Shown: piece by piece, positions 12,910 to 57,243 of the stretch
Numbering within the stretch: position 1 is the first letter of the stretch
Layout: each line of letters begins with the position of its first letter
Source: a virus
Strand: one strand, 5' to 3'
Virus record (IMG/VR): IMGVR_UViG_3300033144_006696
Coordinates: 59,867-123,866 of that record
Length of the DNA: 64,000 bases
The notes under the pieces: model-generated
Seen by the model: only the letters and a program-made list of their open reading frames with translations
What the model was told of the DNA's origin: nothing
Databases searched by the model: none
Position numbers and translations under genes: made by a program

Positions 12910-13573
12910 TTAAATATTTATTCTTAATTTCCTGAAACGACCATCAAAATATATTTCCTCAATTAATCCTTTGTTCATAAGCTTGATTCTATTTCGTTGA
13001 ATTGTTTTAGAAACACATGAAAGCAATTCAGCAGCTCTTGTATCAGATAATCCTGTAATACCTCCCTCAGAACCATTAGAAGCTTTATTTGGTGTTGTTG
13101 AATATGCTTTATACAACATAAGTAAAACTAATTCTATCGGACTTAATTTTTCTTCATCTTTTTTTATTCTGAATTAATTCTTCAAATATATTTCTTCTCA
13201 TGGTAAATTCTCCTGTGGAATTTTTCCAGTATATGCAAGATTTCAAAGCATAGGCTCCACATAATTTTAATTCTAACAAAATATCATGATATGGAATACC
13301 ATTATTTCTGATGAATTTTTTAAACATAATATATTGGTATTCAAAATCAGCAGATATTTTTGTAATTCCATATTTTAAAATTACAGAATAATTTATTGAT
13401 TCAGTTTCACGTTCAACAATAATATTGAAATCTTTGCAGACTTCCCTTAACTCTTGTAATGGATTTTTTGTTCTGAAGAAATTTGAATCCACAAATCTAA
13501 GCTCTTTGTGGTTTTTATTTTGGATTCTTTCGTAATAGAGATCTTCTTTGGAGGGAATTTTCTTGTTAAACAT
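12910..13573 (-). pseudogene. cassette A wHTH protein (frameshift at A7, 13159-13165)
   Basis: Removing one A joins the two track ORFs (QNKKDEEKLSPIELVLLMLYK); C-terminal LSDTRAAELLSCVSKTIQRNRIKLMNKGLIEE winged HTH. Confidence 0.6.
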
Positions 13574-13595
13574 AATTTTACCTTTTGCCACAAGT

Positions 13596-13687
13596 AGCCA
13601 TAAATGAATGTGGGAAAAGAGAATGGCAAATTCTCAGTTCAATACAAGGAGCAACCCTTATATCTATCCCCACAATTTTGGATGACT
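13596..13687 (-). ncRNA. cloverleaf leader RNA, copy A
   Basis: AGUCAU/AUGGCU and UGUGGG/CCCACA stems plus two internal hairpins; homologous to 26347 and 56563. Confidence 0.6.
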
Positions 13688-13688
13688 A

Positions 13689-13717
13689 AGTATAACAGAA
13701 GGTAAAATTTGAAGCAA
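13689..13717 (-). promoter_or_regulatory. sigma70-like promoter
   Basis: TTGCTT-17-TATACT immediately before the leader. Confidence 0.65.
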
Positions 13718-21048: not shown

Positions 21049-22275
21049 CTATCCTTTACGCCCGCAGACAGGGCAAGCTTGATTAATCCATATTTCTTTG
21101 TATGTTATTTCTTCCTCATTCAAAGTTTTAATCACCCATTCAAGATCTTTTTTATTTGTACTAAATTTTTCCAGAACTGCTTCAATTTTTTCAATTTCAT
21201 CCTTATATTTTGTAATTTCAGTTTGTTTAAAATCAAGCTGTTTTAAAGCTGTTGCTGCTTCAGTGATATCAGTAGTAGCATTCAATTGTGTATTAACGTC
21301 ATTCAGTGTGATAATCAAGTTAAATAGAGTATTATATGCTGATTTTTTATCAAAGATTGTTTGATTATATTTTTTAAGTTTTTTAATTTCTAAATTCACT
21401 TGAACCAAATAATCATAATGTGTTAATTTATTATCTACTTTATTTAGCTCATCAAGAACATTATTGAGTTTTTTATATTCAGAAGATTTAATTGCTAATT
21501 GCTTTTGTTTTGTTTTCAATTCATTAATTTCTTTAACAGCTTCATCAACCATTAAATATTCAGCAATCTCAAGATCTACTTTATTTATTTCATAAATTAC
21601 AGAATCTAATTCATCACATATCTCTTGTTTATTCATTATCTTGAATTCAATATCTTCAAGTTTTGATGCCATTTTTTTAGCGAAATCAACCCATTCCGTA
21701 TTTTCTATCTCTTCTAATCTTGTATCAATTTCAAGTTTGGACACTTTTATTAAAGTATTACAGGATCTGACTTGTGAATTTATGTTTTGTATAGCTTTAT
21801 CCATTACAACAAGTCCAGCAACTTTATTGAACTCTTTTGCAATTTGTCCAGGTTTGTCACCAATTAGAAAATATTGATCACTGGGATGTTGAGTCTGTAT
21901 ATTTACATCTTTTATTCTGGTAATTTCTTGAACTTCATCAGGAACATCTGATTTTAAAGCTCTTAAAGGCTCTCCATCATTTATCTCATAATGATTAACT
22001 CCGCCTGAAGCTCCATCTCTTGCTCGTAAAATATTTTTTTTATCATATTTTATATTTACTTCTGTTAATTTAAGTTTATCCTTTTTTGAATCACTTAATG
22101 AATCACTTCTATAACTATCTCCTTGTGGACGATTATGTGCATTCCATTTTATTGCTCTAATTATACTGGACTTTCCGTTGTCACTCTCACCAACCAGAAC
22201 ATTACAGCCAGAATGTAATTCAATATGTGTATCTTTATGAGATTCAAAATTTTTGATTGATATGGAATTTATCAT
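21049..22275 (-). CDS. sbcC: SbcC/Rad50 ATPase, N-terminal half
   Basis: SIKNFESH, Walker A GESDNGKSS, long coiled coil ending in CPVC zinc hook. Confidence 0.85.
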   Translation of the reverse strand: MINSISIKNFESHKDTHIELHSGCNVLVGESDNGKSSIIRAIKWNAHNRPQGDSYRSDSLSDSKKDKLKLTEVNIKYDKKNILRARDGASGGVNHYEINDGEPLRALKSDVPDEVQEITRIKDVNIQTQHPSDQYFLIGDKPGQIAKEFNKVAGLVVMDKAIQNINSQVRSCNTLIKVSKLEIDTRLEEIENTEWVDFAKKMASKLEDIEFKIMNKQEICDELDSVIYEINKVDLEIAEYLMVDEAVKEINELKTKQKQLAIKSSEYKKLNNVLDELNKVDNKLTHYDYLVQVNLEIKKLKKYNQTIFDKKSAYNTLFNLIITLNDVNTQLNATTDITEAATALKQLDFKQTEITKYKDEIEKIEAVLEKFSTNKKDLEWVIKTLNEEEITYKEIWINQACPVCGRKG

Positions 22276-25397: not shown

Positions 25398-26168
25398 TTA
25401 TTTGTATTTTTCTTTCAATCTATTACAAAAATAAATCTGACCTAAAGGAGTAATCATTACTCTCTTTGATAATCTGACACCAAATAATGTGTTATAAGTG
25501 GTTTCTATTACATTGAAAAAGCCTTTTTCTAACATATTTTGGTAGGGTAAATTGTTATCCATGATATATTTCTGAGTTCTCATCCATTTATAAAGACGAT
25601 TCCTGCCAATACCTAAATGTTGATCTTTAACGAGTTTGGCAAATGTTTCAAAATCAATTGCATCATTAGAATTAGAAACTTGTTCTGCAAATTCTACAAG
25701 TGGTTTATCATTCTTGATTTTCTCCTCTAATGTTATTGCTTTCTTTTCTGCTTTATAATAAGCTTCTAATAATTCTAATTTAGTTCTTGGTTGAATTGAA
25801 TATGATCCTGTTTTCCTAATTGTAGGTAAAACTTCTGTTTTTATCCATTTTTTGAAAGCTTTTGCTTTGGGCATTTTACTACCAAAAATTGCCTCATATA
25901 ATCCTGATTCATTTATAACTGTTTGATTTCTATACTGATTTGAGCTGACATTCCGTAACGGCGTGTTAGCTTTTTCATCTTTATCAAGTCTTTTAGTCAT
26001 TTTATTTGTGCCAGAATATTCTAAAATATCTGCAATCTCTTTGGCAATAAACCAAGCTTCTCCGTCTTTTTCAAGAACAGTAAGTTTTCCAAATTCATTA
26101 TTTTTGAAAATTGTTAATTCTGAATTTTTATTTACTTTAATTTTTTCAATTCGTTGTAATTTTTTCAT
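25398..26168 (-). CDS. BRO-N plus ANT/KilAC antirepressor
   Basis: WFIAKEIADILEY, INESGLYEAI, EVLPTIRKTGSY, IGRNRLYKWMR, ITPLGQ. Confidence 0.9.
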   Translation of the reverse strand: MKKLQRIEKIKVNKNSELTIFKNNEFGKLTVLEKDGEAWFIAKEIADILEYSGTNKMTKRLDKDEKANTPLRNVSSNQYRNQTVINESGLYEAIFGSKMPKAKAFKKWIKTEVLPTIRKTGSYSIQPRTKLELLEAYYKAEKKAITLEEKIKNDKPLVEFAEQVSNSNDAIDFETFAKLVKDQHLGIGRNRLYKWMRTQKYIMDNNLPYQNMLEKGFFNVIETTYNTLFGVRLSKRVMITPLGQIYFCNRLKEKYK

Positions 26169-26315: not shown

Positions 26316-26344
26316 TTGCTTCATAATAATATCTCTGTTACACT
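26316..26344 (+). promoter_or_regulatory. cassette B promoter
   Basis: TTGCTT-17-TACACT before the leader. Confidence 0.6.
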
Positions 26345-26346
26345 TC

Positions 26347-26436
26347 AGTCATTCAAATTGTGGGAATAGATTCAGCCTTATAACCTGAATTGAAAATCGG
26401 CTTTGTTAACCGACCTTCCCACATCTTTTTAATGAC
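26347..26436 (+). ncRNA. cloverleaf leader RNA, copy B
   Basis: GUCAU/AUGAC, UGUGGGAA/UUCCCACA, AUUCAG/CUGAAU, UCGG/CCGA stems. Confidence 0.6.
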
Positions 26437-26458
26437 ACACCGTAACAAAGGTGAAAGT

Positions 26459-27073
26459 ATGAATCAGAAATTTAGTGATGAAATTTATGAAAAACTCCTC
26501 GAAGATCCTCCTTTAGCAAAATTATACCTTTCTGGCTATCCTGAACAAAAATCCAAAGTAAAGAAAATATTCCCAAAAGATTTTATTTGGTGGAAGAATA
26601 AAAAATTCAATAATATCAAAAAGAGATATAAACCTATTGAAGCCATAATTACTGAATTTAACAGTAAACCTAATAGATTATCTCACACTAAAGCTCTTAT
26701 AGAATGTGAAGGAATGGATTTAAAGCATTATGTCTTTATAAAAAATAAGAATAAGAGTAAAAGAGATAAAAGTAATCAATACAAACATCCAGCATTGTTA
26801 AAATTAAACTGTAAGGTGATGATTGCTGAAAAACTGGGCATTTCTATTTATTCAATAAAAGAATATATTGCAATGCTTGTCCGGTGCGGCATATTAAGAG
26901 TCACACATCTTGGAAATGGAAAAATATATCTTTCATCAGGTTATTGGCAATTTTATCCATGCGAAGACAAAACAACAAGATATAAAGTTCAACCATACAT
27001 GAATGAAAAAATCGGAAAAAACCTTCTTGATCCAGACAAAGCTTATCTTAGAAAACCAAAATTAAAATTTTAA
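26459..27073 (+). CDS. cassette B wHTH DNA-binding protein
   Basis: MIAEKLGISIYSIKEYIAMLVRCGILRV winged HTH; homologous to 56674-57243; start at ATG with AAGGTG SD. Confidence 0.75.
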   Translation: MNQKFSDEIYEKLLEDPPLAKLYLSGYPEQKSKVKKIFPKDFIWWKNKKFNNIKKRYKPIEAIITEFNSKPNRLSHTKALIECEGMDLKHYVFIKNKNKSKRDKSNQYKHPALLKLNCKVMIAEKLGISIYSIKEYIAMLVRCGILRVTHLGNGKIYLSSGYWQFYPCEDKTTRYKVQPYMNEKIGKNLLDPDKAYLRKPKLKF

Positions 27074-28402: not shown

Positions 28403-29173
28403 TCATATAAGCACTCTTTGTTTTGGTTTTTTCTCATTTTTTATTGCTTCAATAATTCTATTCTTTGCAATTTTGAAATATTTAGATTCTTTTTCAATAC
28501 CTATGCCGTTTCTGTTTAAGTTTTTAGCTGCTACTATAGTTGTTCCACTGCCCATTGTAAAATCCAAAACTGTTTCGTTTTCATTTGTATATGTTTTAAT
28601 TAAGTATTCCATTAGTGTTACTGGCTTTTGGGTTGGGTGTACTGTCCTCCCTAATTCTCTGGGGTAGTTTAAATATGTTATGGGATATTTATATTTATAA
28701 GTTTTTTCTGTCCACTTTTTATCAGGATTATTTTTAACAGGAATAGCTTCGCTTGTTTTTACACTGCCTGCATTAATAGGTTTATCTCTCAGTGTCATTT
28801 GTGGGTAATAATTTGGTAATGTTTTTTCTATACTAAAAACACTGATTGTTTCAATAGTTTTTAATGGCATCCTTTTAACTTGAACAAAATTACTGTCAAA
28901 TTTTTTATTCCAATACCAATCATACTTATAATTCTTAATATTACTCATCCGCAAAGCGGAACTGAAAGGTTCACTTCCAAACAATACAATTGCACCATTA
29001 GATTTAATTAGTTTATTAAGTCTTAACCACATCTTATCAAATGGTATAATTGAATCCCATTTGCAGGCAACAATTCCAAATGGTGGATCTGTGATAATAG
29101 CGTCTACTTTAATATTATCACAGATCAATTTATCCATTACATCTAAACAATCACCACGATAAAGTTTTATCAT
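28403..29173 (-). CDS. DNA N4/N6 methyltransferase (beta class)
   Basis: ITDPPFG, HPTQKP, VLDFTMGSGTT. Confidence 0.92.
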   Translation of the reverse strand: MIKLYRGDCLDVMDKLICDNIKVDAIITDPPFGIVACKWDSIIPFDKMWLRLNKLIKSNGAIVLFGSEPFSSALRMSNIKNYKYDWYWNKKFDSNFVQVKRMPLKTIETISVFSIEKTLPNYYPQMTLRDKPINAGSVKTSEAIPVKNNPDKKWTEKTYKYKYPITYLNYPRELGRTVHPTQKPVTLMEYLIKTYTNENETVLDFTMGSGTTIVAAKNLNRNGIGIEKESKYFKIAKNRIIEAIKNEKKPKQRVLI

Positions 29174-34064: not shown

Positions 34065-34349
34065 TTACTTTTTTAGTGTCAAAACTGCTTCAGATTTTAA
34101 TGTGATTGGTGCTATTGGTTCAGGTAATGAATCAATAGAAATACTTATTGGATTATTATTTTTCAATTTTAATGGGTATTTAATATTGCCTTTTTTCAAT
34201 TGAAATATTGCAGGAAAAAGTACTTCTGCATAATTCAAATGTAAATTGTGTGTTCTGAAACTTATAGAATCCATGCTTCTTGTAATTGTGTAATCTTGAA
34301 AATACATATTTCTCTCAACATTGATAGTAAATATATTGACATCTTTCAT
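34065..34349 (-). CDS. hypothetical protein
   Basis: AAGGA SD. Confidence 0.5.
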   Translation of the reverse strand: MKDVNIFTINVERNMYFQDYTITRSMDSISFRTHNLHLNYAEVLFPAIFQLKKGNIKYPLKLKNNNPISISIDSLPEPIAPITLKSEAVLTLKK

Positions 34350-39277: not shown

Positions 39278-40429
39278 TTAATATTTCCTTTTTCTTTGAG
39301 GTCGTAATTTTTCCATAATGGAATCATATGTTTCTTGACAAATTTGGAACAAATCATCTTCTAAATTATTATTTTCAATATACAAAATAAGTTGTGCTTT
39401 ATTGGTACCTTTTTTCTCTTTCTTCTTGCTGTCAAGAGAATTTGGGGCAAATCCATTTGTGTTGACTACGCCTTTTGCATCTGTCCAATTACCTTCATCA
39501 CATATAAAATTAATGCATCCAACAATATTATCGACTCCATAATCAAATAGAATTGGAAAGTAAGCTTCTCCATGTCTACCAGTCAATTTGTTTTTTGTTA
39601 TTTTTGCAATAACATTGGTTACTACTGTACGTTTGCCTTTTTTTTCCTTCTTTTCACAAGCAAGCCAAATTTCATGAGCAGCATAGAACCTCAATGCTTT
39701 TCCACCTGATCTTACTTTTGGAGTAAACTTTGCACCAAATCCAATGTTGTCTCTTGTCTGAGAAATAATTATAAGTAATGACCCATGGTCTGATAAATCT
39801 TGGATTCGCTGAGAAAACATTTCTGATGCCTTCTTTGCTTTTCCATCACCATAACTACCATCAGTTTTATTTCCCTTTTCTCTTTTAGTTCTATTTTCTG
39901 AATCTTTTTTTATTGCAGCTTCAGAAGTAAGACCATCAAAAGAATCTAATATGTAAATAAACTTTTTATCATCTTCTAAAGCTCTGGCAAGATTATCATT
40001 GAACTCTTCAATGGTTTTACTTCTGATAGTTTGGTCAATTCGATCATTAACTTTATTACCAAAAAGATAAGGAAGATCAAATTCATTTGCAGCTTCAACA
40101 TCATCATAAATGAATTCAAAATCATCAAATCTTTCTTGTAATGAACATTCAGCAAATGTAGTCAGCGCAAATAGGGTTTTACCCGCAGAACTATCACCTA
40201 TTATATTGATAAGTTTACCTAATGCAAATGCACCTTCAATTCTACTAGAACATTCAAGATTAAAAGTAATTGATCCAGTTGGAACAAGTTTAGCAGGATC
40301 AATCTTCATACTTGATGATGAAGTTTTTTGCTTAAATGATTTTGAAAGTTGTTTTTCAATCTTACTTACACCTTTTGTAATATTCTTGACAACTTTTTTA
40401 TCAGTATCTATCTTTTTGATTCGTTTCAT
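39278..40429 (-). CDS. recA: RecA/UvsX-like recombinase
   Basis: GDSSAGKT Walker A, YILDSF, IISQTRDNIG, SGGKALRFYA, KITKNK. Confidence 0.9.
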   Translation of the reverse strand: MKRIKKIDTDKKVVKNITKGVSKIEKQLSKSFKQKTSSSSMKIDPAKLVPTGSITFNLECSSRIEGAFALGKLINIIGDSSAGKTLFALTTFAECSLQERFDDFEFIYDDVEAANEFDLPYLFGNKVNDRIDQTIRSKTIEEFNDNLARALEDDKKFIYILDSFDGLTSEAAIKKDSENRTKREKGNKTDGSYGDGKAKKASEMFSQRIQDLSDHGSLLIIISQTRDNIGFGAKFTPKVRSGGKALRFYAAHEIWLACEKKEKKGKRTVVTNVIAKITKNKLTGRHGEAYFPILFDYGVDNIVGCINFICDEGNWTDAKGVVNTNGFAPNSLDSKKKEKKGTNKAQLILYIENNNLEDDLFQICQETYDSIMEKLRPQRKRKY

Positions 40430-44920: not shown

Positions 44921-47900
44921 TTAATACATTTTATTTATTTGATCAATATCTATCTCCTCCATAAAGGCAAAATTACCTCCTTCCTCTTTTAATTTTGATA
45001 ATTCAAATTCCATTTCAATAGGAACAATTAACCATTTGAACTTATTTTTAAGATTTTTAACAATATCATTTACACCATTTAAAATAAATTTGATTTCTTC
45101 TTTATGTAGGTTAAAAATTATTGAATCGTGCACTTGGCCAGTTATTTTGGTTTTACATTTATTTTTTCTGAGGAATTTTTCAACTTCGATCAAAGTAAAT
45201 AATAATAAATGAAAACTGGTAGATTGTATAGGAAAATTGGTGCATTGCTTCTTATTCATGTATCCAGTAAATCTGAATCCAAAATATGTTTCAATAAAAC
45301 CATACCTTTGATAAGACTCAACTATGTTCTCTTTCCATTCTGTATAAACTGGAAATCTTTCTTTCCACATTTTACTTTCAATATTTTTACAATGTTCAAG
45401 GAATGAACCAGGAGTTGGTTCATATTTTATCATTTCCCCAAGTTCATATATTCCTTGACCTTCAAGCCAATGTTTTACTGTTTCACCATTTGGAAGTGTT
45501 AATCCAGCTTCTACTACATTTTCCCATAAATTCGGAGCACATGACCCAAACCAATCACCATAAAATTGAGCAAATGTCCAATTATTCTTGGCATAAAATC
45601 GAATATTTTTGATCATTTTTATTTGAGCTTTGCTATACCCAGGATAATGTTTATTCATTAGTTTAAGTGGTAATTTAAACAATTCCATTGCCAGATCACG
45701 ATGCATGTCCCCCTGAGTTACGTCAAAAATAAACGTAGGGTCTTTATGATATGCTGCCGAAGTTATTATTTCAGCACCAGAAAAATCACACTCACACAAA
45801 ACACAATTTTTTGAAGGAACTATGCCTTTTCGTACTAATGCTTTAATTTCGGGATTTCTGGCAGGAAGATTTTGGTGATTTGGCTTACTGGATGAATTAT
45901 GCACACAAATTTCATTTACAAAAAAGTTATGACAATCCTCAACTTCAATATCATAAACATCAGTTTTTTTACCTATCCACTCAATCTTAGTTATTATATG
46001 ATTTCCAGGTTTAAACTCTCCGAATTGATTTCTCCATTTCCTCTTTGAATCAATTCCATAATAATCATATAATTCAAGTAATCTATAATGGTTATGACCA
46101 AGAATATCTTTAACTTTTGCCCTTCCAAGTTTTGATAAGTCTTCAAGTCTTTGTTTTGATATAAATTTATCATGTTTATCAAAACATAAGTTTATTTTTT
46201 TCCAATTAATTTTATTAATTACAAGATATTTTTTGAATGTACTAAAATCTATTGAAAATTTATCTGCTGTTTTTTTTGGTTTGCCAGCACATTCCATTAA
46301 CATACAAACACACTGATCTTTTGATAAATTAAATGATCGTGGATTATCTTTGCCTCTTTTTATTGTGTGATCATATCTTCCTTCTTTCCATCCTTTCTTA
46401 ACTGCTTTAATATTATTTATTCTTGACTTCTTTGAACATATAGTATCTTTACTGTGTAACTTTGCATGACTTGATTTTGTATGTTTTTCAAGATTTAATG
46501 GATTATGATTAAAATGATTTTTATCTTTATGGTGAACAATGTCACCACATGTCAATTCACCTATAAAATTTTCATAAATTAATCTATGCTCTAATACGCC
46601 CTTTCCACCTTGTAAATGTCCTGTAAAATTTAATTTATCTCCACTTCTTTTACATGCTAAAGCCCTACAATTTCCATCCTTTGCTTTACTTTTTTTATAG
46701 TGTTGTTTTTTTAAGAGGTTTTGAGCTTCTACATACTTACCATTTATTAATCTAACTTTATGCTCAGGTGTGCAATCAAAATGTCCATGACCACCTTTTC
46801 TATAATAATAAACACGAATTATTTCCCTGTGTCCTGTTTTTCCTTGCCATAATACTTTTTTAATTGCAGGATTTAATTCATTATCAAAACAATATACATA
46901 ATCACCAACTTTAATGTCTTTTATTGGGATTCCTTCTGGATGTAATTCAAAATCTTTCGCCACAAGAACTTTTTCATATTCAGCAATACAGGAACGGTAA
47001 CTTACTGGAATATGAAGATCCCAAAACGGATGAATAATACCTTTATAAACTTCTCTTGCAAATTGTGCAAGATAGGTTCCTTTTGCTTTCTCAAGCTTTT
47101 TCATTTGAATAAGTTTATCAACAAATGGCAAATTTAAAGATTCAAGAGTCAATGCATCTGTTTTGTAATTATTATTTGCTGTATATACTGGAGTTTTACC
47201 AAGCACTTCATAAAAAAGTTTGCCAAGATCAGTATTTGATGTAATGTTTATTTCTTTTCCAATTTGTTCTTTAAATTTTTTTGCTTCTCTACCTTCAGTT
47301 AATTCCTTCTTTGTTATGTCAATTCTTTCTTTTAATTCAACATTTGTCTTTTTGTAATACTCAGTATTAACAGTGATACCATTGAGTTGTATAGTTCCCA
47401 TTGTACGGATTCCACGCATAAAGAACTTAAAAGCATTATGTAATTTATCCATTTTTGAAAAATAAGCTTTTTGATCATTATAAAGCATGTATGTGAAAAT
47501 ACAATCAAGACCATTATAAACCAAAAGATCTTTTAAAGGTACTTTCTCTACTGTATTAAACTCTGTGCCTTTTTTTGATTTTAGAAAAGGTGATATTGAG
47601 TCATCGTAAGGGCGAACACCATATCGTACAAATGCTTGAAACTTCAAACCTATTGCAGCAGCTCTATTATCAGTGCATTTTTGACCAATCATCGTACAAT
47701 GAATTACATTTCTTATACGAGTTCCAATTTGAATGGCTGACCACATGTCCTCAAATTTTGCATTGTGCGCTATCTTTTCAATATCTTTATGTGCAAGAAT
47801 TTCTTTCCATAATGCTTTGATTTCACTTAATTCACTTTTTGTCCAGAAAGAATTAAAATCAAATGGAAATGCATATGCTTTTTTTGCTGATATTGCAAGA

Positions 47901-48685
47901 GCTATCGTAACTATTTTGTGTCCATTACGATATGGTTTCAAACCAGTTGTCTCATAATCAAAAGCAATTTTTTGTTTTCTTTTTATGACTCGTTTTAAGA
48001 GTGATTTAACGTCGATAAAGTTTGTAAGAGTGACAACATACTTCTCAAAGTTTGTTTGCTTCTTATACGTCTTATTTAAACATGTATTAATGAGTTTTAG
48101 ATCTCGTTTAAACGTAGAATGTAGATTTTTGTCTTTATCTTTTTTAACAAGTTCCCATGGATGAAATAATGGAAGTACATAACACTTAAATTTTTCATCT
48201 GGAATTTGAAATGCACGCCAACGCATTATTTTACGATTGGAAAAGTTTTCACCAAATACAGATGTTATTGCAATACTCCCAAGTAGTACAATAAGTTTTG
48301 GTTTAAGTTTAAGAATTGTCCTTTGTATCATTGGATAACAACAAGAAATTTCTTTATGTGAAGGGATTCTATCATGTGGAGTTCTACAATTTACAGCTCC
48401 AATTTTCCAACAATCCTTATGCAGTGAAATTTTTATATGTCTTAGTTCTTTTTTTAGGAAATCACCATTTTCACCAACAAGATGAATCCCAAACTCATCT
48501 TCTTCTTGTCTTGGAGCTTCCCCAATTATCAGAATCCTTTTTACACCTTCACCAGTAACATCTAATTTAGGATGCAAACAATTTTTATATAATCCACATT
48601 TTCCACAATCAGGAGTTAATTGGTTTATATCAATTTTTTTCTTTGTTTTTTTAACTAATTCACTTTTGGTAAAAAATCCAACCAC
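44921..48685 (-). CDS. polA: family A DNA polymerase with N-terminal UDG-like and 3'-5' exonuclease domains, containing an intein
   Basis: CGKCGL, IIGEAP (UDG family 4-like); FDYETTG; RS|SSSKPNHQNLP split; CDFSGAEI; NFPIQST; QVHDSI. Confidence 0.92.
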   Translation of the reverse strand: MVGFFTKSELVKKTKKKIDINQLTPDCGKCGLYKNCLHPKLDVTGEGVKRILIIGEAPRQEEDEFGIHLVGENGDFLKKELRHIKISLHKDCWKIGAVNCRTPHDRIPSHKEISCCYPMIQRTILKLKPKLIVLLGSIAITSVFGENFSNRKIMRWRAFQIPDEKFKCYVLPLFHPWELVKKDKDKNLHSTFKRDLKLINTCLNKTYKKQTNFEKYVVTLTNFIDVKSLLKRVIKRKQKIAFDYETTGLKPYRNGHKIVTIALAISAKKAYAFPFDFNSFWTKSELSEIKALWKEILAHKDIEKIAHNAKFEDMWSAIQIGTRIRNVIHCTMIGQKCTDNRAAAIGLKFQAFVRYGVRPYDDSISPFLKSKKGTEFNTVEKVPLKDLLVYNGLDCIFTYMLYNDQKAYFSKMDKLHNAFKFFMRGIRTMGTIQLNGITVNTEYYKKTNVELKERIDITKKELTEGREAKKFKEQIGKEINITSNTDLGKLFYEVLGKTPVYTANNNYKTDALTLESLNLPFVDKLIQMKKLEKAKGTYLAQFAREVYKGIIHPFWDLHIPVSYRSCIAEYEKVLVAKDFELHPEGIPIKDIKVGDYVYCFDNELNPAIKKVLWQGKTGHREIIRVYYYRKGGHGHFDCTPEHKVRLINGKYVEAQNLLKKQHYKKSKAKDGNCRALACKRSGDKLNFTGHLQGGKGVLEHRLIYENFIGELTCGDIVHHKDKNHFNHNPLNLEKHTKSSHAKLHSKDTICSKKSRINNIKAVKKGWKEGRYDHTIKRGKDNPRSFNLSKDQCVCMLMECAGKPKKTADKFSIDFSTFKKYLVINKINWKKINLCFDKHDKFISKQRLEDLSKLGRAKVKDILGHNHYRLLELYDYYGIDSKRKWRNQFGEFKPGNHIITKIEWIGKKTDVYDIEVEDCHNFFVNEICVHNSSSKPNHQNLPARNPEIKALVRKGIVPSKNCVLCECDFSGAEIITSAAYHKDPTFIFDVTQGDMHRDLAMELFKLPLKLMNKHYPGYSKAQIKMIKNIRFYAKNNWTFAQFYGDWFGSCAPNLWENVVEAGLTLPNGETVKHWLEGQGIYELGEMIKYEPTPGSFLEHCKNIESKMWKERFPVYTEWKENIVESYQRYGFIETYFGFRFTGYMNKKQCTNFPIQSTSFHLLLFTLIEVEKFLRKNKCKTKITGQVHDSIIFNLHKEEIKFILNGVNDIVKNLKNKFKWLIVPIEMEFELSKLKEEGGNFAFMEEIDIDQINKMY
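45896..46990 (-). mobile_element. intein (365 aa) with HNH endonuclease
   Basis: C1 CIAEYEKV; CTPEH block B; EHRLIY...VHHKDKNHFNHNPLNL; VYDIEVEDCHNFFVNEICVHN followed by Ser+1. Confidence 0.92.
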
Positions 48686-55030: not shown

Positions 55031-55816
55031 TTAAATATTTTCTAATAAATCTAAAATGAACTCACGGCCCTTCTCGGTCCAAACTGTAGAATGGGAGGTT
55101 TGTTTACTTACTTGTCTACCATTATTAATGATATGAGTTCGTGTATTAACCAATCCTCTATCTTGGTATTGTTGTTTAAGCAACCATTGACCACTTTGTT
55201 TAAATTGAACTCCAGACTGTTCAAGAACTGTATTTAAGGAATGAGCCGTCATTTCGACCTGTTTCGCAATCTGAGTTATTGTAAAATCTGATTTTGAATC
55301 CAGAACTTTATCATAATATTTGACTTTTGGGCGATCTTTTTTGATTTTGCGTGTTTGCTTTTTTACTACTTTTTTCTGTTTTTCAATTTCTTCAAGAGCA
55401 AGAACCTTTTGCTTTTCTGAAATGACTAACTGTTCTAATGCTTCGATATAATTAGTGGGCAATGATTCTTTTTTGTTATAATCTGTAAATGCTCTCATAA
55501 TCTGAATTGATCTTTTCACAGCAATGTCAGATCTAAGAATTGAAGAGAGTTGATTTGCTCCATATTGTGTAAAAATGTATGTAAGTGCTGGGGATTGTTG
55601 ACTTATCGCATTTTGCGATAACAGAAATTTCTGTTCAATATCAGTGACTTGGAACATAAAATCATCAGGGAATTTATTTTTATTTCTTTTTACTGCTTCA
55701 TTTAATCGTCCAGTTTTAACTTGATAAATCTTTGCAAGATCTTTTGCAAACATTCCGTCAGGTCTTCCCGGTAAACTTATGATTAAAGATTGGATTCGTT
55801 CAATTATTGCTTTCAT
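55031..55816 (-). CDS. ORF6N plus ANT/KilAC antirepressor
   Basis: DLAKIYQV, LNEAVKRNKNKFPDDFMFQ, FTQYGANQLSSIL; TITQIAK, TVWTEKGREFI. Confidence 0.9.
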   Translation of the reverse strand: MKAIIERIQSLIISLPGRPDGMFAKDLAKIYQVKTGRLNEAVKRNKNKFPDDFMFQVTDIEQKFLLSQNAISQQSPALTYIFTQYGANQLSSILRSDIAVKRSIQIMRAFTDYNKKESLPTNYIEALEQLVISEKQKVLALEEIEKQKKVVKKQTRKIKKDRPKVKYYDKVLDSKSDFTITQIAKQVEMTAHSLNTVLEQSGVQFKQSGQWLLKQQYQDRGLVNTRTHIINNGRQVSKQTSHSTVWTEKGREFILDLLENI

Positions 55817-56531: not shown

Positions 56532-56561
56532 TTGCTTCTTTCATAATACTTCTGTTATGCT
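56532..56561 (+). promoter_or_regulatory. cassette C promoter
   Basis: TTGCTT-18-TATGCT. Confidence 0.6.
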
Positions 56562-56562
56562 T

Positions 56563-56652
56563 AGTCATTCAAATTGTGGGAATAGATACGAAAGTCATGA
56601 GTCGTATTGAAAATTGATCCCGTCAATCAACTTTCCCACATTCTTTTATGAC
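56563..56652 (+). ncRNA. cloverleaf leader RNA, copy C
   Basis: GUCAU/AUGAC, UGUGGGAA/UUCCCACA, AUACGA/UCGUAU, UUGAU/AUCAA stems. Confidence 0.6.
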
Positions 56653-56673
56653 GGCTTTTGGCGGGAAAATATT

Positions 56674-57243
56674 ATGAATAACCAAGAAATATATCAAAAA
56701 TTCCTCGAATTAGATCCTTCCTTTGCTAAGAAATTCAAAACAGAAAACATCACAAAATCCAAAAAGAAAATCCCCTGGCCTTTAAAACACAAATGGTATC
56801 ATCATAAAAAATTCGATAGCGTCAAGAAGCGTTTCAAGTATCTTGAGACAATTCTTATTGAGATTGGTAATTCTCTATATAGATTAACCCAAAATAAATG
56901 TAAAAAACTAATATCTAATGATAAACTTACGAAAGATCATTCTTTTATTCTTAATAGAAAAAGAAAAACTCCTGCGTTTATGCGCTTAAATTGCAAATTC
57001 TTAATTGCAAAGAAAGTTGGTTGTTCTGTCCGTACTGTTGAATACATACTTAGAGCTTTAGTTCGTATAGATGCATTAAAAGTTTCAAATTTTGGAAAAG
57101 GAAAATCATATTATCATTGTGGTTATTGGGGAAAGTACAAAAACAAAGAAGATGTAATTGATTTCAAAATCCATATGTACATGAATCAAAAAGTTGCTAA
57201 AGAAATGGCTGATCCAGATAAATTCTATAAAAGAAAAATCTAA
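56674..57243 (+). CDS. cassette C wHTH DNA-binding protein
   Basis: LIAKKVGCSVRTVEYILRALVRIDALKV; homologous to 26459-27073. Confidence 0.78.
   Translation: MNNQEIYQKFLELDPSFAKKFKTENITKSKKKIPWPLKHKWYHHKKFDSVKKRFKYLETILIEIGNSLYRLTQNKCKKLISNDKLTKDHSFILNRKRKTPAFMRLNCKFLIAKKVGCSVRTVEYILRALVRIDALKVSNFGKGKSYYHCGYWGKYKNKEDVIDFKIHMYMNQKVAKEMADPDKFYKRKI

Follow-up and report, generated by a model that had tools for sequence, protein, structure and literature searches.

The int-alpA motif (Rfam RF02996), which we assign to the set of 224 candidates published by Weinberg et al. (2017), has a catalogued form built from a closing stem, UAG, a first hairpin whose stem has 3-4 bp and whose loop, about 4-5 nt long, is UCGC-like, (C)GAAA(A), a second hairpin with a loop complementary to the tail, a CUG junction back to the closing stem, and the closing strand. 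Its pseudoknot site lies about 5-10 nt beyond the closing stem, and its genes encode an integrase, AlpA or nucleases. The motif is entered in Rfam as 'Gene; sRNA' and is not discussed in the main text of PMC5737381. A literature search yielded no functional study of int-alpA and no experimentally shown function. The c4 RNA of phage P1 and the CI RNA of P4 are small, structured, leader-encoded RNAs, the loops of which pair with downstream ribosome-binding sites and give a sequence-specific 'immunity'. The homing-endonuclease mRNAs of T-even phages also carry structures that sequester the ribosome-binding site (PMC3014915), and in I-TevI, I-TevII, I-TevIII, mobE (Aeh1) and segB a leader structure pairs with the ribosome-binding region and limits translation. 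These hairpins are simple and local, without a shared fold, and those of I-TevI are promoter-dependent.

Five leaders, designated copies A to E, were found in the genome of an uncultured virus. A first-pass annotation had presented three of them (A, B and C) as a covarying cloverleaf RNA, conceptually like the P1 c4 and P4 CI antisense RNAs or else a cis translational switch. These three share with the int-alpA consensus the order of closing stem, UAG, hairpin, (C)GAAA(A), hairpin with a tail-complementary loop, and closing strand. They resemble c4 in logic only, as a leader-encoded loop would pair with a ribosome-binding site downstream on the same transcript; their fold differs, and covarying targets were found for only one of their loops, whereas c4 has two loops and two target sites and is released to act as a separate RNA. 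As in the T-even phages, pairing with the ribosome-binding region may limit translation, but copies A to C differ from the T-even hairpins in having a conserved three-way junction and a loop that would pair at a distance, often with two alternative sites.

Genome setting and inventory of the leaders

The window, the whole stretch of DNA that was analysed (64,000 nt), covers positions 59867-123866 and is the second half of a complete virus record of 123,866 bp. It has about 30% G+C, holds most of its genes on the minus strand and contains a replication module with DNA polymerase, helicase, ligase and a UvsX-like recombinase. The DNA polymerase open reading frame (ORF; window 44921-48685, minus strand, 1254 aa) carries an HNH-endonuclease-like insert at residues 667-771, and a DNA methylase gene lies at window 28403-29173 (minus strand). 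In the other half of the genome, the type-P1 twister ribozyme reached 42.8 bits (E = 4e-6) at positions 21317-21389 (minus strand; L008 1317-1389), short of its cut-off of 67.2. An IMG/VR search with the phage DNA ligase gave no close relative of the phage, and the ligase relatives in cultured phages are only about 30% identical.

The three copies described at first are all present in the window at the places given for them, but a structural descriptor applied to both strands of the whole 124-kb genome found five, A to E, and no other site. Two or more leaders of the same type also occur on other viral contigs, namely L126 (40-107 and 4941-5009) and L147 (3739-3832 and 14072-14169), so carriage of several copies is common. 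A further leader was found on one metagenome contig, L004, which encodes a homologue of the proteins behind copies B and C; its closing helix, UAG and UGAA are kept, and its first hairpin has a new sequence that still pairs. The features are as follows, with window positions for copies A, B and C and genome positions for copies D and E.

13689..13717, minus strand: promoter-like stretch of copy A, with TTGCTT (13717-13712), a 17-nt spacer and TG-n-TATACT (-10 at 13694-13689)
13609..13674, minus strand: core of copy A, with the closing stem 13674-13667 paired with 13616-13609 and UAG at 13666-13664
13664-13641 and 13635-13619, minus strand: first and second hairpins of copy A, with GAA at 13640-13638 and the second loop, UUGCC, at 13629-13625
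13154..13573, minus strand: gene after copy A, with a product of 139 aa that has no family assignment and is unrelated to the B and C proteins
26316..26344, plus strand: promoter-like stretch of copy B, with TTGCTT (26316-26321), 17 nt and TG-n-TACACT (26339-26344)
26359..26423, plus strand: core of copy B, with the closing stem 26359-26366 paired with 26416-26423 and UAG at 26367-26369
26369-26391 and 26397-26413, plus strand: first and second hairpins of copy B, with GAA at 26392-26394 and the second loop at 26401-26409
26459..27073, plus strand: gene after copy B, encoding a winged-helix DNA-binding protein of 204 aa from a rare family
56532..56561, plus strand: promoter-like stretch of copy C, with TTGCTT (56532-56537), 18 nt and TG-n-TATGCT (56556-56561)
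56575..56640, plus strand: core of copy C, with the closing stem 56575-56582 paired with 56633-56640 and UAG at 56583-56585
56585-56608 and 56614-56630, plus strand: first and second hairpins of copy C, with GAA at 56609-56611
56674..57243, plus strand: gene after copy C, a paralogue of the copy B gene (189 aa, 36% identity)
34098-34152 of the genome, in its other half: copy D, before the gene of a 617-aa protein
39582-39636 of the genome, in its other half: copy E, before an HNH_3 endonuclease gene

Upstream of the core, copies A, B and C share the box CTTGCTTC, followed 17-18 nt on by CTGTTAYRCTT (an extended -10, TG-n-TAYRCT) and then by AGTCAT; the promoter-like stretch is kept in all three and less strictly in L004. 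A consensus promoter scan called the TTGCTT/TAYRCT pair at none of A, B and C (copy A was missed because TTGCTT matches TTGACA at only three of six positions), and with this scanner the promoter-like matches in the AT-rich DNA around the three copies were at the level of shuffled sequence. We infer a promoter from the conservation of the stretch, and the leaders would be transcribed from a putative start downstream of it.

The outer helix P1 (AGUCAU/AUGAC) that had been proposed to close a cloverleaf did not hold up. In copies A and C the 5' strand of this helix starts 1 nt past the -10 hexamer, and in B 2 nt past it. Sigma-70-type transcription starts lie about 5-8 nt after that hexamer, so AGUCAU lies upstream of a plausible start and at most its last one or two bases would be present in the RNA. 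P1 has no two-sided change and one U-G pair in copy A; L004 lacks AGUCAU and keeps AUGGC without a 5' partner, and no P1-like helix was found in D, E or 29 other members. The AUGRC box itself (13601-13597, 26432-26436 and 56648-56652) follows the closing stem at a distance of 7-9 nt in A, B, C and L004, and overlaps the proximal loop-partner site in C and L004, which may in part account for its conservation. An upstream reading frame starting at this box was considered and rejected: it would have 3, 7 and 9 codons, its AUG is in frame with the main gene in copy B, and no Shine-Dalgarno sequence precedes it.

Fold, covariation and pairing of the second loop with the tail

In copies A, B and C alike, an 8-bp closing stem is followed by UA, one variable hairpin, GAA(A), another variable hairpin and the closing strand; UAG and GAA are invariant in all three. 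As the first-pass annotation had noted, the closing helix (P2, UGUGGGRA/UUCCCACA) is common to the three copies, an invariant UGAA separates the inner hairpins in the alignment, and the two hairpins (P3 and P4) are unrelated in sequence between copies while pairing is kept in all. Without P1, the fold is a Y-shaped three-way junction in place of the cloverleaf described earlier, with a putative pseudoknot that the earlier description had missed. It is the minimum-energy structure of each copy folded alone (z = -2.5 to -3.4 against shuffled sequences), and RNAalifold returned the same fold.

MAFFT applied to the core sequences misaligned D and E, and model-guided alignments were therefore used. 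Across six copies (A to E and L004), 99.1% of the cells pair and 15 of the 19 pairs show a two-sided change, a result that none of 500 shuffles reached. The same alignment has ten G-U cells against one mismatch, which indicates that this strand is the folded one. Among 24 distinct sequences from other viral contigs, 98% of the cells are paired and 117 are changed on both sides (0 of 500 shuffles), so the foreign set alone covaries strongly. Parts of the leader are near-identical although the B and C proteins are only 36% identical, which argues that those parts are under selection, and the variable parts go on pairing; fold and covariation together bear out the earlier suggestion of an RNA selected for structure, with copy-specific loops. 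A tRNA or tRNA-like element was rejected, as ARAGORN found no tRNA in the window and the four-arm cloverleaf with T and anticodon loops is lacking; pattern matches to real tRNAs (L005, L022) arose by chance through their acceptor-like stem.

The first hairpin loops of copies B and C contain 6-nt palindromes (UUAUAA in B, window 26376-26384; UCAUGA in C, 56592-56601), that of L004 (about 509-514) contains AGCU, and those of A, D and E have no palindrome. The palindromic loops of B and C could reflect loop-loop dimerisation or chance, the latter with a frequency of about 7% per loop.

In all six copies the tail that runs from the closing stem to the start codon contains a complement of the second-hairpin loop. 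The partner sites in copies A, B and C are:

13578..13589, minus strand: predicted pseudoknot partners of copy A, GGCAA (13589-13585) and GGUAA (13582-13578), the latter inside the Shine-Dalgarno sequence AAGGU; start codon 13573-13571
26443..26450, plus strand: predicted pseudoknot partner of copy B, UAACAAAG, an 8-nt perfect complement of the loop; start codon 26459
56650..56665, plus strand: predicted pseudoknot partners of copy C, GACGG (56650-56654, proximal) and GGCGGG (56660-56665, Shine-Dalgarno region); start codon 56674

The 5-nt perfect complement in copy A (loop UUGCC with GGCAA) was reached by 84 of 5000 tail shuffles, that in copy B, which overlaps the first 3 nt of the Shine-Dalgarno sequence AAGGUGA, by 63 of 5000, and the better site in copy C (loop CCCGUC with GGCGGG) by 58 of 5000. 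The match is CUUGUC with GGCAAG in L004, 7 nt long in D and 6 nt in E, and over the copies the shuffle frequency ranged from 0.012 to 0.15. In A, B, C and L004 the main site differs in sequence but lies 18-19 nt past the closing stem; the distance is 5-7 nt for D and E and about 9 nt for the Rfam consensus. Between C and L004, a change of CC to UU in the loop is mirrored by GG to AA in the tail. The most stable duplex of every loop is with its own tail, with a tie between the copy A loop and the L004 tail. In leaders of the type of A to C the main site ends 8-12 nt before the AUG and abuts or overlaps the Shine-Dalgarno sequence. A second, weaker or equal partner is present in A (GGUAA), C (GACGG), E (UGAGA, at the Shine-Dalgarno sequence) and also L004. 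The 49 foreign members gave the same picture: 35 have a loop-tail site against 11.5 expected (threefold over shuffled loops), 21 have two sites against 2.8 expected (about sevenfold) and 28 have a site no more than 12 nt from the start codon against 7.6 expected (nearly fourfold). Upstream of the start, the sites of these members fall into two groups, at 3-13 and 17-30 nt.

It is very improbable that the inverted repeats act as DNA, either as operators of the downstream winged-helix proteins or as cruciform or recombination sites of a mobile cassette: copies B and C do precede DNA-binding proteins and the inner repeats are copy-specific, as for operators of paralogous regulators, but the same fold precedes nucleases and many unrelated genes, the ten G-U cells become A/C mismatches on the other strand, covariance models score the reverse strand at noise level, and a double-stranded operator would have no use for long-range pairing or pseudoknot covariation. 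We give equally little credence to a 5'-terminal stabiliser, in which the closing stem would only shield the mRNA from decay that depends on the 5' end. The predicted start does lie 0-5 nt before the closing stem in E, L004 and the contig L084, but this reading leaves the conserved junction, the second hairpin and the covarying pseudoknot with its sites beside the Shine-Dalgarno sequence unexplained.

The enrichment of two mutually exclusive partner sites (the 21 of 49 members) also suits a sensor, either riboswitch-like or a protein-binding aptamer, in which the UAG/GAAA junction would bind a small molecule or else a protein of the phage or its host, and so set whether the loop takes the proximal partner or the one beside the Shine-Dalgarno sequence. 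The nucleotides of the junction hardly vary, in contrast to all the helices, and aptamers are commonly built as a three-way junction with a pseudoknot. Such a sensor is nevertheless unlikely in our judgement: the downstream genes, unrelated to one another and to metabolism, point to no ligand or protein, the junction is very small (2 + 4-5 + 0-3 nt), and the evidence fits a constitutive brake equally well.

Relationship to the int-alpA family

Searches with the Rfam covariance models gave no family match for A, B or C at the gathering level or at E <= 10, with the C4 model or any other, and this speaks against membership of the P1 c4/P4 CI antisense family. Copy E, however, scored 36.0 bits against RF02996 and passes its gathering cut-off of 35.8 bits. 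The RF02996 model misses copy D, and it misses A to C, whose first hairpin is long and whose pseudoknot site is displaced. On other viral contigs it matches L126, L156, L120 and L135 (four members, five sites) at 37.8-47.7 bits, and L113 falls just under the cut-off at 34.5 bits. A 20-nt core common to D, E and the contig L028 was found in 93 IMG/VR stretches, against an estimated few expected by chance.

A covariance model built from A, B, C and L004 only (R1) recovered copy D at 31.7 bits (E = 5e-5), copy E at 21.9 bits (E = 0.013) and no other site. A second model (R3) was built solely from 29 IMG/VR members on other viral contigs, several of which pass RF02996 at 43-48 bits; its alignment was made with a model (R2) that includes A to C, so column placement could be biased, though not the sequences used. 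In the window, R3 recovered C (47.6 bits, E = 4e-11), B (42.2 bits, E = 2e-9) and A (37.4 bits, E = 6e-8), with the next match at 16.8 bits; as calibration was shortened, the E-values of both models are rough. R3 also recovered D, E, the L084 leader and L004 (33.1 bits). Novelty of copies A to C as a kind of RNA was not borne out. Judged from sequence and predicted structure, A, B and C are a divergent variant of the catalogued int-alpA family, RF02996.

The variant shares with int-alpA the 8-bp closing stem followed by UAG and the loop-tail complementarity, and its junction reads GAAAA in B and C and GAAC in A. It departs from the catalogued form in its first hairpin, which has 7-10 bp and loops of 4-10 nt (likewise in L004), in the junction back to the closing stem, which is YY in place of CUG, in the main pseudoknot site at 18-19 nt, in being AT-rich, and in its association with winged-helix genes at B and C. 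Copies D and E have 9-bp closing stems wholly unlike those of A to C in sequence, followed by UAG, a first hairpin that has 3-4 bp and a UCGC loop, GAAA(A) and another hairpin; the tip of the first hairpin of copy A resembles the whole hairpin of D. Two exact-pattern scans of IMG/VR for leaders of the type of A to C returned nothing, or only a tRNA and one chance hairpin, and the 17 matches of such a scan of the GTDB genomes were all chance matches or tRNAs.

Downstream genes and proposed function

The only recognisable feature of the B and C proteins is a C-terminal winged helix, with weak Pfam matches to FaeA and HTH_36 and weak matches to MarR/ArsR-like winged-helix folds; no nuclease fold was found by fold comparison. 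Only nine members of this rare family turned up among 5.8 billion clustered proteins, and relatives of the gene were found on no viral contig and in no cultured phage, but on one metagenome contig (L004). The B cassette adjoins a divergent antirepressor-type gene with Bro-N and KilAC domains (window 25398-26168, minus strand), and the C cassette a divergent one with ORF6N and KilAC domains (window 55031-55816, minus strand).

In the product of the copy D gene, treble-clef zinc fingers occur together with a restriction-endonuclease-like domain. The start that gene callers assign to the HNH gene behind copy E (genome 39574-40191; L008 19574 onward) is about 30 codons too early, as it is in the metagenome homologues P0012 and P0015-P0017, so that the int-alpA leader is translated as a false N-terminal extension (conserved 'DR', 'EKW', 'ENI' and 'RG'). 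Among 80 IMG/VR loci encoding HNH_3 homologues of the copy E gene, the fold was found only in L028 and L084, which indicates that the leader does not track that nuclease family as such. In L028 (IMG/VR contig 3300014914_000048), a group I intron (RF00028, 104 bits; 1357-1580) lies directly after the leader-bearing HNH gene.

Of 51 distinct foreign int-alpA cores, 50 are followed on the same strand by an ORF that starts within 90 nt (8-82 nt), which is weak evidence by itself, phage genomes being densely coded. The products are mostly proteins with homing-nuclease domains, including zinc-finger/restriction-endonuclease proteins (Pfam: HNH_3 10, HNH 3, HNH_5 3, NUMOD4 5, GIY-YIG 2, DUF4379 3), and further include DNA methylases, an integrase, a TnpB, helix-turn-helix proteins and tail-tube proteins.

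This position argues against a trans-acting sRNA, in which a fold of about 70 nt would be freed by termination at a U-rich stretch or by processing and its loops would hit other transcripts, as with P1 c4. Besides the Rfam entry as an sRNA gene, such a reading could draw on a run of 3-5 U beginning 2-4 nt past the closing stem in A to C, and on the palindromic loops of B and C, which could make kissing contacts. Yet the best partner of each loop is its own tail, GC-rich members lack the U-rich stretch, and no terminator-like site was called at A, B or C, a result on which a terminator was also rejected; we consider a trans-acting sRNA improbable.

Since each loop matches its own tail best, the evidence favours the cis translational switch that was the other of the two functions first suggested. 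As we picture it, the leader would stand at the mRNA 5' end of an autonomous small gene and fold into a three-way junction, and the loop of hairpin 2 would pair with the transcript's own tail to form a pseudoknot. It would have one or two alternative partners, one junction-proximal and one abutting or overlapping the Shine-Dalgarno sequence and ending 4-12 nt before the AUG. Pairing with the latter would hinder 30S binding and keep translation of the downstream gene low, and the alternative site may tune or switch that pairing. By analogy with the T-even leaders, loop pairing beside the ribosome-binding site probably limits translation, and the most likely function that we infer is to brake or switch, in cis, the translation of autonomous accessory or selfish genes. 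The more specific proposal, that A to C are divergent int-alpA leaders in which a pseudoknot on the Shine-Dalgarno side limits translation of each copy's own small gene, is favoured with moderate confidence.

Several points count against a brake. Rfam types int-alpA as an sRNA gene. The best site in A and L004 abuts the Shine-Dalgarno sequence and does not cover it, and D has a single good site, which ends 17 nt upstream of the AUG, so blocking of the ribosome is not evident in all copies. Being transcribed first, the proximal site could win and leave the Shine-Dalgarno sequence free. The UAG/GAAA junction is invariant across very distant phages, which hints at a tertiary fold or a bound factor, and a simple anti-Shine-Dalgarno brake needs no invariant junction. 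A bolder account would make int-alpA a self-contained two-state switch, the UAG/GAAA junction sensing a signal and moving the loop between a decoy and the site beside the Shine-Dalgarno sequence, with RNA-RNA dimerisation added in the palindromic long-hairpin variant. Candidate signals are a ligand, a protein, the traffic of ribosomes and the stage that infection has reached. We regard this account as quite unlikely; if true, it would define a new class of regulatory RNA over selfish and accessory genes across many phages.

The int-alpA family reaches well past the detection of its Rfam model, into AT-rich and long-hairpin forms. It sits as a 5' leader, apparently right on the mRNA of autonomous genes for homing nucleases, winged-helix proteins and others, and its loop covaries with its one or two partner sites at the ribosome-binding region. 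If confirmed, a translational brake or switch of this kind would account for the ability of phages to harbour numerous selfish genes that are potentially toxic and that each have a promoter of their own.
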